The notes under the pieces were generated by a model. The model did not search any database. It saw only the letters and a list, made by a program, of their open reading frames with translations, and was not told where the DNA came from. Positions 58,807 to 63,975 of a DNA stretch of 64,000 bases are shown here, piece after piece; position 1 is the stretch's first letter, and every line of letters begins with the position of its first letter. The position numbers were made by a program, and so were the translations under genes. The stretch lies in the IMG/VR virus record IMGVR_UViG_3300042691_015660; one strand, given 5' to 3'. The DNA is from a virus.

Positions 58807-59232
58807 ATGATAGAACCTGAGTACTACCGCGTGTGGTTCGAAGTCATAGACCATAGCAAGAAAAAATACGGTTGGCCGATCCCTTCCTATATAGAACAGT
58901 ACCTTAGTGCTGTCTTAGCCAACTACACTGACAAGCCTGATTGGCAACCCGAGTCTACTTGGGCAGAGACGCTGTTACAGTTACAATCAGCACAGGCTGC
59001 AAAAATCCTAGGCGATCAAGCCTTGTTTGCTGCTGTTATATTTCCTAACATGCTGAATCGTAAAGGAATCTCAGAGCAGTACTTCCACAGCATAGGGCGC
59101 AGCAGTTACAATCGCGCCACGCAGATCAATGCTGAACTGTTTGGCACCATGAGCCAGCATTTTAGCTATCTAGCGCACTGTCTACAACAATGTGTGCGAG
59201 ACAACCCCCAGATAGAATGGCACAAACAGTAA
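58807..59232 (+). CDS. Hypothetical protein
   Basis: Start reassigned to in-frame ATG 58807 (TAAATA-N5-ATG). Confidence 0.6.
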   Translation: MIEPEYYRVWFEVIDHSKKKYGWPIPSYIEQYLSAVLANYTDKPDWQPESTWAETLLQLQSAQAAKILGDQALFAAVIFPNMLNRKGISEQYFHSIGRSSYNRATQINAELFGTMSQHFSYLAHCLQQCVRDNPQIEWHKQ

Positions 59233-59296
59233 ATACTTAGAGCGTACAATTTGGAGCGATTATGTCAGCACGGTGCTGGAGTCCGGGAGCGAAACC

Positions 59297-60079
59297 GTGG
59301 ATCCATTAACACTTTTTGCCTTAGCCAACGGAGCCGTACAGGCTGTCAAAAAGGGTTGCGAACTTTACAAAGAAATCAAGAGTGCTGCTGGGGATGTCAA
59401 AGACGTCCTTAAAGATCTTGATGACCAATTCCACAACAAATACAAAGATCGTGCTCCTACCATTGCGGAAAAAAATCAGTTCATCCAAGAAAAAAATCGT
59501 ATCATCGAGCTTAACAAAAAGGGCGGTGAAACTACTAATATCTATACAGAAATTGGTCAGCAGTTAGGAGCTTATTTTGACAATTACTATAAATGTCTAG
59601 CAGTATTCGAAGAAGAAGAACGACGTAGTAAAACAGAAGTATACCATGGTGAAGATAGTCTAGGCAAACGTGCTCTACAACGTGTGTTACTGAAAAAACA
59701 GCTAGAACACATGAGTCAAGAACTGCGCGAAATCATGGTCTATCAAAGTCCTCCAGAACTAGGAGCATTATGGACTGACGTAGAAGCTATGATGAAAACT
59801 GTGGGCAAGGAACAAAGTGTAGCAATTGGTATAGAAATGCGACGACATGCAGAACAGACTAAGATCAGAGCACGTCGTAGGAAACGCCTTCAATACAGAA
59901 TTCTATGCTGGACCAGTAGTAGTATAGGTGTAATCTATCTGGTTTGGTTAATATGGGCCGTGGTACAAATACGTATAGATAATAATCCTGAACTAGGGCG
60001 TTGTCTTATACCTAAAGGACAGTGGCCTTACGAGCACTATAATAATTTAAAGTGGATAGACTGTGAGCAGATTAAATAG
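59297..60079 (+). CDS. Coiled-coil protein with C-terminal transmembrane helix
   Basis: GGGAG SD before GTG 59297 (MDPLTLFALANGAV); basic RRRKR then hydrophobic IGVIYLVWLIWAVV; two distal Cys. Confidence 0.7.
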   Translation: MDPLTLFALANGAVQAVKKGCELYKEIKSAAGDVKDVLKDLDDQFHNKYKDRAPTIAEKNQFIQEKNRIIELNKKGGETTNIYTEIGQQLGAYFDNYYKCLAVFEEEERRSKTEVYHGEDSLGKRALQRVLLKKQLEHMSQELREIMVYQSPPELGALWTDVEAMMKTVGKEQSVAIGIEMRRHAEQTKIRARRRKRLQYRILCWTSSSIGVIYLVWLIWAVVQIRIDNNPELGRCLIPKGQWPYEHYNNLKWIDCEQIK

Positions 60080-60093
60080 ACAGAGGATTTAGT

Positions 60094-60180
60094 ATGTGGA
60101 TGAATTTATTAGTTATTGTGTTAGCCTTGATAGTAGTAGCCGTATTTGTATGGCTGTTAGAGGAAAATTATGACGACTGA
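60094..60180 (+). CDS. 28-aa single-TM micro-protein (not in ORF track)
   Basis: GAGGA SD; MWMNLLVIVLALIVVAVFVWLLEENYDD. Confidence 0.55.
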   Translation: MWMNLLVIVLALIVVAVFVWLLEENYDD

Positions 60181-60409
60181 CAGTGAAGATCCTAAGAACG
60201 CCTTAGATAAAATGAAGAAAGAAATGGCTAAGAAAAAGGCCAAGCTTACGGTACCCGCAGACTTTCTAGACAATGCCAAGAGCTATGATGACAAGCTGAC
60301 CTTGGTCAAGATCCTTAGTGAAAAAGAAAAGCAGCGTGTGGTTCTGCTGTTCAAGAAGATGATACAGAGTGGTATAGAAGAAGAAAACAAAAAGAAAGGT
60401 TTAAAATAA
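60170..60409 (+). CDS. Small Lys-rich hypothetical protein
   Basis: GAGGA SD; 79 aa. Confidence 0.65.
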   Translation: MTTDSEDPKNALDKMKKEMAKKKAKLTVPADFLDNAKSYDDKLTLVKILSEKEKQRVVLLFKKMIQSGIEEENKKKGLK

Positions 60410-60492
60410 TGGATACTATAGATTTGTTTATACTGTTAGCCTTAGTGGGTATGATTTTATATTATGTGGTCAATGTGGGACCTTTCGAATAG
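60409..60492 (+). CDS. 27-aa single-TM micro-protein (not in ORF track)
   Basis: TAATG coupling; MDTIDLFILLALVGMILYYVVNVGPFE. Confidence 0.5.
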   Translation: MDTIDLFILLALVGMILYYVVNVGPFE

Positions 60493-60546
60493 CCCGCAGT
60501 CGCGCAGCGCACAGCGCAGCAGTCCCGGTAAGCCATAAATACTACC

Positions 60547-61398
60547 ATGAAGATCCAAGAAATCATACAAGAATACGATGCCACAGATCAGCAGATACGC
60601 TATCGCAAACCTAACTTTGACTACGACACACTGCAGAACAAAGGAGAACGTGACAGCGACCAGGCCTTGAACAAGGGTGTACAACCAGGCTGGTACAGTG
60701 GCGGGCAGACTAATCCCCGTGATCCGCACGAGTTCATTAAGAAGCCACATCTTACTGCTAAACTGGATAAAGATGCTTACTACAAGTACGTTATGGAAAT
60801 ACGTGAACTCAAGCAGCAGGGCTATCACAATCCTTTCTTTCCACAGGTCTATAACATAGACATTACACAAGATCCCAAGGGTAATCAGCGTCCACGTTAT
60901 CGTATAGAAAAACTACAGCAGGGCGATAGCTTTCCAGCTAGAACACTTATAGGCCTGTATGAACGCCTGTTCAACGACGAGTTTGATCAGCGTAATCTAG
61001 AAGGCGTTAGTAATCGATCATATGCAGTATGGAGAGAAATAGCTAATCAGGTCAATCGTGCTGTGGAACGCAGTAACTATACTAACATACGCGATGATCA
61101 ATTAATGGAAGCATTGGTATTGATAGATCGTATTGTACAGGAAAATCCAGATTGGAATGTGGACCTACATGTAAACAATATCCGTGTACGCGGCAGTAGT
61201 GTAGGTCCACAGCTGGTGCTCATGGATCCAATCAGTGATGGTGGTGCCAGTATACCAGACTATGACGATATCAAATCTGGTCCACGTAATAACCAAATGA
61301 TGCCTCCACCGCCTCCGGACACACCAAAGAAGCAGACTGGTCTAGGCACACTGCTAAAGCGTAAGTTGGACCAAAAAGATCAAGACTCTTCGGCTTGA
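60547..61398 (+). CDS. Atypical protein-kinase-like fold protein with capsid-targeting-like N-terminus
   Basis: FPQVY, IEKL, DLHVNNI catalytic loop, LMDP; MKIQEIIQE; TAAATA-N5-ATG start. Confidence 0.6.
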   Translation: MKIQEIIQEYDATDQQIRYRKPNFDYDTLQNKGERDSDQALNKGVQPGWYSGGQTNPRDPHEFIKKPHLTAKLDKDAYYKYVMEIRELKQQGYHNPFFPQVYNIDITQDPKGNQRPRYRIEKLQQGDSFPARTLIGLYERLFNDEFDQRNLEGVSNRSYAVWREIANQVNRAVERSNYTNIRDDQLMEALVLIDRIVQENPDWNVDLHVNNIRVRGSSVGPQLVLMDPISDGGASIPDYDDIKSGPRNNQMMPPPPPDTPKKQTGLGTLLKRKLDQKDQDSSA

Positions 61399-61652
61399 AC
61401 ACCTGCTATACCACCAACACCTGCAACAGCTTCCACTGGTGATTTATAGGTAGTCTCATGATCGATATTCATATGAAACGTACCAGCTGTACGTTCAGCG
61501 TCAGTCATAGGTAAAGGATCACGTGGCGGAATGCCTTCTACCACTGGCGGTGGTGGCGCATTCGGTGGTGTAATACCGTTGTTAAACACAGGTAATTCCG
61601 GTTCTTGAGCTGCGTCGACTGCAGGTTCTGGTACAGTATATTCTGTTGACAT
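61380..61652 (-). CDS. Pro-rich hypothetical protein
   Basis: AGGAGA SD before ATG 61652 (MSTEY...); minus-strand TAAATA at 61670-61675. Confidence 0.6.
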   Translation of the reverse strand: MSTEYTVPEPAVDAAQEPELPVFNNGITPPNAPPPPVVEGIPPRDPLPMTDAERTAGTFHMNIDHETTYKSPVEAVAGVGGIAGVQAEES

Positions 61653-61707
61653 AATAGTCTCCTTTTGCATATTTAACATAAATATTCTGGTTTGATAAAG
61701 GATAACG

Positions 61708-61893
61708 ATGACTGAAACACACACTAGAACTATGGTGCGAGCTGTTGTTTGGAGAATAATAGCCACATTGGTAACAGCAATTTGGGCAGGATGGAGCGGA
61801 GCTATTATGGCTAACATTGTGCTCACTGTACTACACTATGTGCATGAACGTGCTTGGTTAAAGATCAAGTGGGGACGAGTTCACGATTCTTGA
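61708..61893 (+). CDS. DUF2061-like small membrane protein
   Basis: ETH.RT...AV.WRIIAT and Y.HER.W.KI.WG. Confidence 0.75.
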   Translation: MTETHTRTMVRAVVWRIIATLVTAIWAGWSGAIMANIVLTVLHYVHERAWLKIKWGRVHDS

Positions 61894-62735
61894 AAGTACT
61901 TGGTATAAACACGTCGAGCAAAATTACTATGATGAGTCACACTGGGATGCATGTCATTTTCTGCTGGTGGAATACTGGGATCGTGTATTACAGTACAAAG
62001 GTCATGATCCACTGGTAGGGTATACCAAGTGTTAGGATCGGGTATGATATATGGATCACGTAGCGATGGTGCGAGTTCAGATCTAGCAGATTCAAGCTGC
62101 AGATCATATGCTTCGGGTTCTACACTGAGATGTATGACACGAGCACCCGTGGCTCTAAGCAGGCCATCAGTGGCAGCAAGCAGGATTAGATTGTTGTAAA
62201 AACGATTATACACGCCCATGGGATCCAAGGCCAACTGTGCTGTTTGATGTATGTGATCATAAATTAGTTGATCCGCATGATCCGTGCTGTTGTCCGAAGG
62301 ACTGAGGCCAAAAAATTTATTAAACCCTTTGGTCACTGTGCGCCATCCCCAATTGGTATCAATCATGCTGCAGAACGGTACTGTGGTTCTAGCGGGCCAC
62401 TGTAGGCTTAGTCTACTGAGATATGTCCACATGACTATGACTGTGTCTGTGGGTTGTATTGTGGGAGCAGCTAGTACACACTGTCGTGCTATCTGCTGGA
62501 AGCAGGCGCCGCGACGAGCATGATTCTCAACAGGAATACTGAGTTGATTGGCTAGTACATTGGGCCAAGCGTACAGACTGGGTTCGTATATGTGAATACT
62601 GGTCCAATGAATTCCTTGATCATGAACTTCCTGATCGGAAAGTGGTTGCCCTTGTGCGTTCACAGCGGGACGAACCACATCTGGAAGCGCAAATCCCTGT
62701 GTTATACTGCAGCCGAATGTATGTAATGTAGTCAT
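61881..62735 (-). CDS. SGNH/GDSL-like hydrolase or acyltransferase
   Basis: FGCSITQG block I, N.A..GA block II, C-terminal DMHP; TAAATA-N5-ATG on minus strand. Confidence 0.7.
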   Translation of the reverse strand: MTTLHTFGCSITQGFALPDVVRPAVNAQGQPLSDQEVHDQGIHWTSIHIYEPSLYAWPNVLANQLSIPVENHARRGACFQQIARQCVLAAPTIQPTDTVIVMWTYLSRLSLQWPARTTVPFCSMIDTNWGWRTVTKGFNKFFGLSPSDNSTDHADQLIYDHIHQTAQLALDPMGVYNRFYNNLILLAATDGLLRATGARVIHLSVEPEAYDLQLESARSELAPSLRDPYIIPDPNTWYTLPVDHDLCTVIHDPSIPPAENDMHPSVTHHSNFARRVYTKYFQES

Positions 62736-62962
62736 ACGATTATTTACTGTGTGCGAACAAGTGGGGCATAAAAAGTGAGTGCTAGCAGAAAATGGGTCCT
62801 ACAGGTATTAAAAAATTGCTGCGCGAAAATTTTAAAATAGCTACTATTTCCTCTCGGGGTGGTGATTTTACTCCGGTACCATTTGTAAAAGTAACAATAT
62901 AAAATAAAAATATATACCTCCCCACCCCGACCATTCTCGAAAAAATTTCTCAACCTCGAGAG

Positions 62963-63057
62963 AAAAAAAATCCCCAGCACCGGGAGCGAATCGGACACTG
63001 GGGATAAGATGGGCCACGATGGCCCTTACTAGTATGCTGGTTGGGAGCGAATCAACC
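62963..63057 (-). ncRNA. Candidate structured 3'-UTR / small RNA: three hairpins, two with identical AUUCGCUCC loops, ending in a U8 terminator
   Basis: Plus-strand stems ATCCCCAG/CTGGGGAT (62970-63005), GGGCCA/TGGCCC (63011-63025), GGTTG/CAACC (63039-63057); A8 at 62963-62970. Confidence 0.5.
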
Positions 63058-63882
63058 GCGGCGCATACAGGTAACCTCTGCTACACTCTGCCACTTATTA
63101 GGAAAGCTCTTACGCAGGTCTGCTATCTTAAGCACAGTACGCAGTGACAGCTCACGTAGCTTCTTCTTGTTATTGTCTATAAAGCTGACTAGCTCAGCTT
63201 GTTCTTCTGTAGTAAACTCATAGTCCATGAGCATGCCGTCTTCTATGATCTGTTCAATACGCAGCATCTTCTCGCGCTCTGTATCAATAGTAAGATCCAA
63301 GTAGTGGCAACGACTCTCCAGTGCTGCCAAGTGATCCTGTAGCTTCTTGCTGCGTACATTCTCAAACTTGATGTTGGTGATAAAGATAGCACCGCCCTTA
63401 AACTCAAAGCTGTTGGGTGCGCCCTGATCACGCAGCAGTCTGCTGTCTGTGTTCCAATGTATGGTACGCTTCTTGCTGCTGTCCAGTGCTGCTTTCAAGA
63501 TGTTCAAGCTGAGCTCATCCTGTAGCACACTGTCGCAGTCATCAAACACTAGAATAGACTTGGCATCCTTGTACTCATATAACTTTGAATACAAGCCTAG
63601 GGCACTCATAGCACCTTTTACCACTTCATACTTTTTCAGCTTGCTGTTGTTGGCCACAGTGGCCATCAAGTCATGCTTGCTGAGTACTTCTTCTACACCA
63701 AAGCTCTTGCCCACTCCTGGAGGACCCGTCACAATCATAGCACGTACATCACCCTTCTTAACAGCACGAGTCATGTCGTTCAGTATCTCAAAACGCTCAC
63801 GCAGGCGTTCCTTGATCTGTTCATCAGTTTCTGTTTTGGGCTTGTTCAGCTTGGGGATTTCAAAGTTCATTGTGTGTTTCAT
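63052..63882 (-). CDS. AAA-family P-loop ATPase
   Basis: GPPGVGKS Walker A, LVFDDCD Walker B, ITN sensor, SRC arginine finger. Confidence 0.85.
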   Translation of the reverse strand: MKHTMNFEIPKLNKPKTETDEQIKERLRERFEILNDMTRAVKKGDVRAMIVTGPPGVGKSFGVEEVLSKHDLMATVANNSKLKKYEVVKGAMSALGLYSKLYEYKDAKSILVFDDCDSVLQDELSLNILKAALDSSKKRTIHWNTDSRLLRDQGAPNSFEFKGGAIFITNIKFENVRSKKLQDHLAALESRCHYLDLTIDTEREKMLRIEQIIEDGMLMDYEFTTEEQAELVSFIDNNKKKLRELSLRTVLKIADLRKSFPNKWQSVAEVTCMRRG

Positions 63883-63946
63883 GTCAGCTCCGCTCTGTTG
63901 GTAAGTGTGTAATATTGCTAGACACTATTGCTAATGTCTAGTGTAT

Positions 63947-63975
63947 ATTATAACTTAGATAAAGCTGTCTGTCAA
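63947..63975 (-). promoter_or_regulatory. Consensus sigma70 (early) promoter TTGACA-N17-TATAAT
   Basis: TGTCAA 63970-63975 and ATTATA 63947-63952 on the plus strand; drives the ATPase gene. Confidence 0.85.

Follow-up and report, generated by a model that had tools for sequence, protein, structure and literature searches.

We analyzed a stretch of 64,000 nucleotides (nt; hereafter the window) from the IMG/VR virus record IMGVR_UViG_3300042691_015660. At the right end of the window the DNA is that of an uncultured giant T4-like phage that encodes a DnaB-type helicase and an AAA ATPase. The ATPase message is monocistronic and early, has its own promoter and ends in a 3' untranslated region (3'UTR) carrying hairpins. 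About 3.7 kilobases (kb) from this hairpin region, on the opposite strand, lies the start of a membrane protein gene, the leader of which contains GGAGCGA twice (Table 1). An initial annotation had proposed that the hairpins expose two loops complementary to the Shine-Dalgarno (SD) regions of this leader and that an early RNA thereby silences a late membrane protein. We followed up this proposal in the window and in related phages; every coordinate given for it was correct.

Three hairpins are predicted for the minus-strand RNA 63060-62955 behind the ATPase stop codon (-37.4 kcal/mol, z = -3.35; one of 200 shuffled sequences was equally stable). As had been annotated, the first and the third hairpin present the same 9-nt sequence, AUUCGCUCC, as an unpaired loop, and a U8 terminator follows. 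The plus-strand form GGAGCGAAT is located at 62983-62991 and 63044-63052, the latter copy extending into the TGA stop codon of the ATPase gene (63054-63052, minus strand). Hairpin 3 and the U8 tract on the sense strand at the gene end have the characteristics of an intrinsic (Rho-independent) terminator, and the relatives are alike in this respect. Folding energy does not discriminate between the strands, the plus strand of the region being nearly as stable (-36.9 kcal/mol); the hairpins were assigned to the minus strand because of the gene orientation and the U-run. The early sigma70-driven origin of the transcript agrees with a perfect TTGACA-17-TATAAT promoter at 63975-63947. No Rfam family matched the hairpin region at E <= 1.

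Conservation and covariation of the loops in relatives, which the initial annotation had named as a test, were assessed in clade 1, defined as the best 80 of hundreds of IMG/VR relatives (ATPase 73-97% identical). The motif G-AUUCGCUCC-C was present on the ATPase sense strand in 80 of 80 relatives, 4 to 206 nt past the stop codon, with two copies in about 75 relatives, three in one and one in four. The last copy regularly forms the tip of the terminator, and the sequence flanking the loops is not conserved but its pairing is. The 3-base-pair (bp) helix closing the loop was formed in 95.6% of alignment cells (60 distinct copies) by pairs including C-G, U-A and G-C, and it showed 24 double changes against 3.2 in column shuffles; none of 500 shuffles reached the observed value and slid controls collapsed. 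Minimum-free-energy folds of arbitrary 61-nt contexts left the nine loop bases unpaired and closed by G-C in 91 of 123 cases. Since the loop is conserved, its stems covary and it is unpaired in the folds, the twin-loop element is, as judged from these comparisons, under strong selection as a single-stranded structure with an invariant loop.

A private extension present on certain ribosome-binding sites is exactly complementary to the loop. Upstream of the ATPase gene the relatives carry an array of small early genes, each preceded by a sigma70 promoter and some 25 nt of CA-rich leader. In an unbiased k-mer count over 484 non-redundant promoter-proximal leaders the top 8-mers were AGGAGCGA (196) and GGAGCGAA (146), and GGAGCGA(A), hereafter the tag, is the commonest extended SD of sigma70-driven early genes in clade 1, located 5-8 nt before the start codon. 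Among 688 GGAG-type SDs in clade-1 loci 182 were GGAGCGAA, where about 3 were expected. Whole contigs contained GGAGCGAA 8-15 times against 0-2 times for the control, and these copies are concentrated in the array of early genes, at the end of which the hairpins lie. Start regions of the ATPase gene itself carried GGAGCG or a longer form in 52 of 55 distinct cases from relatives, and at least 7 nt of the tag in 42 of the 55. A 3'UTR match to the message's own SD, as known from icaR mRNA, is accordingly present in the ATPase mRNAs of most relatives and degenerate in that of the window. The initial annotation had cautioned that GGAGCGA occurs elsewhere too, a caveat that was borne out and led to the tag on the ribosome sites of early genes. 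Its picture of one RNA with one target has to be given up: the tag is a clade-wide feature of early genes, is usually found on the ATPase's own site and also marks a few late envelope genes. The early gene array of the window's own genome lies past the window end. Further matches to GATTCGCTCCC in whole contigs were considered as additional hairpin copies and rejected, as they are ordinary tags of genes on the opposite strand.

The CGAA extension cannot pair with the canonical tail of 16S rRNA (here the E. coli-type tail). Extended pairing of the tag with this tail was rejected, since only GGAG pairs, giving about -7 kcal/mol versus -13 to -17 kcal/mol with the loop. For the two tags of the membrane-gene leader the predicted energies with the tail are -7.6 and -7.1 kcal/mol, versus -13.0 and -16.7 kcal/mol for the duplexes with the loop, so that the annotated complementarity to both SD regions holds. 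The background of loop duplexes over 84 window start regions is -4.0 +/- 2.7 kcal/mol, and the membrane leader is the best predicted loop target. It is also the only tagged start region in the window and is unusually unstructured (z = +2.28). GGAGCGA occurs seven times in the window against 2.64 expected, with none of 100 shuffles reaching seven; four of the seven copies lie in two non-coding stretches of about 380 nt in total, a clustering noticed post hoc. Exact copies of GGGAGCGAA number three in the window, with no others.

The leader itself is organized as annotated, with two GGAGCGA sites, an upstream open reading frame (uORF) beginning at ATG 59262 and an 11-nt match, CCGGGAGCGAA at 59283-59293 being identical to 62980-62990. 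Complementarity of the second tag to hairpin 3 covers the loop and then extends into the 3' arm of the apical stem. GTG 59297 is considered the true start of the membrane gene because relatives start with M-D-P-L-T at the homologous ATG. The uORF is kept in exactly those lineages in which the main start is GTG or TTG; with such a weak main start overlapped by the uORF, this pattern suggests translational coupling and would account for the two tags, as both SDs, that of the uORF and that of the main start, would need covering. Over eight divergent membrane-gene lineages GGAGCGA is the sole invariant block upstream of the start. The TAAATA at 59230-59235 is probably the promoter of this leader. 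TAAATA is also observed 5-6 nt before ATG at 60535-60549 (+) and 62733-62751 (-), a spacing which implies leaderless or nearly leaderless late mRNAs, judging from sequence, whereas the tagged membrane gene would have a 60-nt leader. The membrane protein matched no family in Pfam, PHROGs or ESM Atlas, and the lysis or toxic role once suggested for it is not supported as written, Pfam and PHROGs giving no family. Downstream of the gene (60095-60493, +) two single-transmembrane open reading frames (ORFs) of 28 amino acids (aa; 60095-60181) and 27 aa (60410-60493) flank a Lys-rich ORF of 79 aa, together forming a cluster of small membrane peptides.

Late genes of relatives carry tags of 11-14 nt such as CCGGGAGCGAAUC, which reach into the apical stem of the hairpin. 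These genes all encode proteins of the envelope, namely a DUF4337 membrane protein, a small protein with a transmembrane segment (phrog_18771) and two secreted proteins, one CsgF-like and one rich in Ser, Thr and Asn. Leaders of the phrog_18771 gene (L385, L386, L390, L398; G006-G010) differ among close relatives, which carry GGAGCGAA or GGAGCAAA or are leaderless. The contigs with GGAGCAAA are nearly free of GGAGCGAA (2 in 510 kb); the ATPase region lies outside these fragments.

More distant lineages were also compared. Clade 2 (80 loci, ATPase 56% identical) has a single hairpin after the ATPase gene, with the loop UUUG(U/A)UAGCUCCUUU on variable stems, and a separate terminator. Its ATPase SD is always GGAGC and matches the loop of the same locus over 7-11 nt; in L188 and L234 the match has extensions specific to the lineage. 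When SDs and loops were shuffled in 2000 permutations, in which kinship was ignored, all but one gave poorer matches than the own pairs. Seven clade-2 contigs (L196, L227, L232, L237, L245, L252, L253) have no GCUCC hairpin; just after the ATPase stop codon, where it would be expected, they carry another conserved hairpin, with the loop CAAUGUCAAUAAGU and variable stems. In clade 3 the ATPase gene is usually followed directly by another ORF, and leaders are rich in GGAGCA(C). One contig within this clade, L647, has three hairpins with (A/G)UUGCUCC loops, and among its 17 early leaders 10 carry GGAGCAAA and 15 GGAGCA but none GGAGCG. Compared with clade 1, the G of the tag and the loop base pairing with it have both changed. 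Scans with the patterns GTCGCTCCC, TTTGCTCC and GATTGCTCCC...TTGCTCCC for variant twin loops gave, among the matches listed, unrelated sequences with no ATPase nearby.

The window has no close relative among GenBank phages (megablast returned nothing). A close cultured relative was sought and rejected, as the best GenBank phage ATPase, that of PA5oct, is only 49% identical; in PA5oct another coding sequence lies directly 3' of the ATPase gene. In the window the ATPase SD and the loop are predicted to form a duplex of 7 bp including one G-U (-10.3 kcal/mol). Further upstream the ATPase leader contains a 5' stem-loop with stem variants in L001 (CUACACA/UGUGUAG) and L006 (CUAGGCA/UGCCUAG) and an unchanged loop. 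It may be a 5' stabilizer or a second regulatory hairpin limited to the window's sub-lineage. On the other side, 3' of the U8 terminator (62860-62960, -), we noticed another hairpin, UCUCGA...UCGAGA. The same region contains a G-rich block, CGGGGUGGGG, for which CCACCCCG, some 60 nt beyond it, offers a pairing partner; L001, L005 and L007 have the G-rich block as well.

Table 1. Features of the membrane-gene leader and the ATPase transcription unit, with positions in the window.
Feature	Position	Strand	Basis and remarks
Putative late-type promoter core TAAATA before membrane gene	59230..59235	+	Read from sequence; also precedes the gene in many relatives
Partial tag GAGCGUA at leader start	59240..59246	+	GAGCGAA in L081, L084, L094
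Tag 1, GGAGCGA, SD of uORF	59253..59259	+	Predicted loop duplex, energy in text
uORF, 15 codons, overlapping main start	59262..59309	+	Kept in L081, L084, L094-96
Tag 2, CCGGGAGCGAA, SD of membrane gene	59283..59293	+	Predicted loop duplex, energy in text; GGAGCGA invariant in alignment
Membrane protein gene, 260 aa, GTG start, C-terminal transmembrane segment	59297..60079	+	Sequence and homologues
U8 tract of intrinsic terminator	62963..62970	-	Sequence and terminator scan
Hairpin 3, long terminator stem, tip CCG-AUUCGCUCC-CGG (62983-62991)	62970..63005	-	Fold, terminator scan, relatives
Hairpin 2, GC-rich spacer, GGGCCA-UCG-UGGCCC	63011..63025	-	Fold; sequence varies, pairing kept in L001, L005, L006
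Hairpin 1, GGUUG-AUUCGCUCC-CAACC, loop 63044-63052, overlaps ATPase stop	63036..63059	-	Fold; conserved; closing helix covaries
AAA ATPase gene, 276 aa, T4 NrdC.10-like, phrog_1250	63052..63882	-	Profile and homology searches
ATPase SD region, GAGCGGAGC, degenerate tag	63887..63895	-	Third best of 84 start regions against the loop
5' stem-loop of ATPase leader, 7 bp, CUAGACA-UUAGCAAUAG-UGUCUAG	63918..63941	-	Stem covaries, loop kept
Sigma70-type early promoter of ATPase, TTGACA-17-TATAAT	63947..63975	-	12 of 12 consensus positions

A mechanism that would account for the observed conservation, covariation, complementarity and enrichment is that the 3'UTR of the early ATPase mRNA acts as an anti-SD RNA which damps tagged mRNAs in cis and in trans, and we favor this reading with a confidence slightly better than even. 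Two hairpin loops of the 3'UTR would each present UUCGCUCC, the second from the top of the terminator, and would base-pair with ribosome-binding sites bearing the private extension GGAGCGAA. Its targets would be many sigma70-driven early genes, usually the ATPase gene itself and a few late envelope genes; the tagged late target of the window would be the 260-aa membrane gene, with tags on the coupling uORF and on the main start. Pairing would cover the SD and lower translation initiation, and RNase III substrates may also arise. The element would control its own message in cis and the set of tagged mRNAs in trans: early translation would be damped or stopped, and the late proteins of tagged genes would be delayed for the lifetime of a stable 3' fragment. 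From the sequences we infer the stability of this fragment, the pairing in the cell, the repression and the timing of late envelope proteins. As expected of trans-acting base-pairing small RNAs (sRNAs) that target ribosome-binding sites, the complementarity of the seed to start regions is conserved and covaries among relatives, with loop sequences differing between lineages and a matching change of the tag seen only in L647.

Several points weigh against this reading. A single 3'UTR faces many tagged mRNAs, a stoichiometry that would be unfavorable unless the 3' fragment accumulates, and the formation of 8 or 9 bp within a 9-nt loop would be sterically demanding. The separate sRNA of about 95 nt, as originally proposed, is not supported as written: neither a sigma70-like site for such an RNA near the ATPase 3' end nor a processing site was found. 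The expected conservation of the target held in part, with GGAGCGA invariant in the eight membrane-gene lineages, but many loop-bearing relatives (e.g. L006/L105) have no tag on the membrane gene. In the window's sub-lineage the ATPase's own SD is degenerate and early tags are weaker, G001 having GGAGCGAA in 2 and GGAGCG in 7 of 16 leaders. Leaders of clade 2 are without the CGAA tag and show no extension beyond GGAGC, and the clade-2 permutations lack a correction for kinship. The third pair of tag and loop is known from the single contig L647, and at almost no clade-3 locus was a matching hairpin found within 6 kb.

The loops might instead be sites of an RNA-binding protein that governs termination, read-through or stability of the ATPase message, and their SD complementarity would then have no pairing function. 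Protein operators typically combine an invariant loop with a variable stem, many copies are flanked by the conserved asymmetric internal loop GUAAGY, and the invariant first loop base A has no preferred U opposite it in the early tags. We nevertheless regard this explanation as unlikely. For the complement of the clade's top 8-mer tag to turn up by chance within an invariant 9-mer, the probability is about 3e-5, not corrected for post-hoc choice. Two further lineages have anti-SD loops as well, with a matching tag change in L647, and no candidate protein was identified.

A purely cis-acting, icaR-like element, the loops of which pair only with the ATPase's own SD for autoregulation or message stability, would make the other tags by-products of shared promoter-leader cassettes. 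This would fit the position of the element, always behind the ATPase gene, which has its own promoter, and the tagging of the ATPase start (42 of 55 with at least 7 nt), which is more consistent than that of early leaders in general. Clade 2, without a general tag, yet with an ATPase SD matching the own loop and extended in L188 and L234, points the same way. On the other hand, two to three loops per 3'UTR exceed the need of one SD, and the tag is kept on dozens of unrelated early genes as well as on late genes with matches of 11-14 nt. In the window's lineage perfect loops accompany a degenerate ATPase SD, and in membrane-gene leaders of divergent lineages the tag is the sole invariant block. 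Restriction to cis appears improbable as well, and we place it just after the protein-site explanation.

An activating RNA, shielding tagged SDs from nuclease or docking on the ribosome as a private anti-SD that favors tagged phage mRNAs, seems considerably more doubtful. The loop GAUUCGCUCC does resemble the 3' tail of 16S rRNA, GAUCACCUCC, at 7 of 10 positions. Pairing between the tag and the canonical tail is poor, and the tag marks highly expressed early genes with strong promoters. Such an activity has no precedent, there is no sign of ribosome binding, and occlusion of the SD is the simpler outcome of pairing. As a side observation, the tag at 59283-59293 resembles GGGGAGCGAACAGG, the 5' strand of helix 24 in many bacterial 16S rRNAs, and the loops might conceivably pair with host pre-rRNA too. 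That all copies of GGAGCGA(AT) are double-stranded DNA sites of one phage or host DNA-binding protein, in line with the alternative of the initial annotation that one protein binds all four sites, is very improbable even though the four non-coding window copies lie on the same DNA strand, since the loop stems covary and indicate a single-stranded structure, the second copy forms the top of an intrinsic terminator, the tags precede start codons by the SD spacing of 5-8 nt and do so on the sense strand only, and tags and loops are strictly opposite relative to transcription.

If the 3'UTR acts as an anti-SD RNA on tagged mRNAs, a wider interpretation could be considered, which we put forward tentatively and hold to be somewhat short of an even chance. 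A private SD extension of 3-4 nt would serve as an RNA address that marks the early regulon and a few late envelope genes, and one early 3'UTR, bearing the matching anti-tag in its hairpin loops, would be a genome-wide translational timer. It would be an RNA counterpart of RegA and RegB of T4, ending early synthesis and delaying tagged late membrane proteins until the RNA decays. Should the proposed system operate, it would show how giant T4-like phages apparently without RegA and RegB time translation, would provide a natural case of orthogonal SD addressing and would offer a compact, portable switch for gene sets made of an 8-nt tag and a hairpin. A full-text literature search returned no paper on a lytic phage with a private SD tag for a temporal class and an early anti-tag. 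Anti-SD pairing by bacterial sRNAs and 3'UTRs is known already; the proposed phage-wide pairing of tag and anti-tag appears to be new, no report of it having been found.

Regulatory RNAs with comparable features are known from several systems. In Gram-positive bacteria sRNAs with C-rich loops (RsaE/RoxS, RNAIII hairpins) use unpaired loops to pair with the G-rich SDs of several mRNAs and repress initiation. These RNAs target ordinary SDs of host regulons, whereas the specificity of the phage loop would come from the 3-4-nt extension (CGAA), which has changed together with the loop in one contig. In the c4 antisense RNA of P1 and P7 and in the OxyS-fhlA pair, two loops pair with two leader sites, one of them over the ribosome-binding site, similar to the two loops and two tags of the window. 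However, c4 is cut from the transcript of its own target and controls one operon, whereas the phage hairpins and the membrane gene are located 3 kb apart on opposite strands and the hairpins match no Rfam family.

Post-transcriptional control at the ribosome-binding sites of early genes is exerted in T4 by the translational repressor RegA and the GGAG endonuclease RegB (PMC1702504, PMC3014915). Both are proteins, unlike the phage element, and the target consensus of RegB/S1, GGAGRAYARAA, disfavors C at position 5 (PMC1702504), where the phage tag has C. Homologues of RegB (PF10715) and RegA (PF01818) were not detected in five whole contigs of relatives, in a search whose controls also matched nothing, so that their absence is not proven. 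The idea of a RegB-type cleavage tag was rejected on account of this consensus, in which C is avoided at positions 5-6, and of the failure to detect either protein in these contigs.

The Cuckoo / CcsR (alpha-r14) sRNAs of Alphaproteobacteria consist of two to four adjacent hairpins with the same anti-SD-like loop motif on highly variable stems (PMC4615179). The phage element is similar in having identical loops on covarying stems, two in the window and one to three in relatives. In contrast, the bacterial motif CCUCCUCCC fits generic SDs, whereas the phage loop AUUCGCUCC corresponds to a private tag and has no Rfam match; the bacterial RNAs stand alone, whereas the phage loops sit in the 3'UTR of the ATPase message with no promoter of their own found near. 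The 3'UTR of icaR mRNA in Staphylococcus aureus contains an anti-SD motif; when this motif pairs with the SD region, the initiation complex is blocked and a substrate for RNase III arises (PMC3868564). The phage motif differs from it in occurring twice, each time in a hairpin loop and once within the terminator, in matching an SD extension common to many genes and in belonging to a lytic giant phage. Like icaR mRNA, the ATPase message of most relatives carries both partners, the SD and the anti-SD motif in its 3'UTR.

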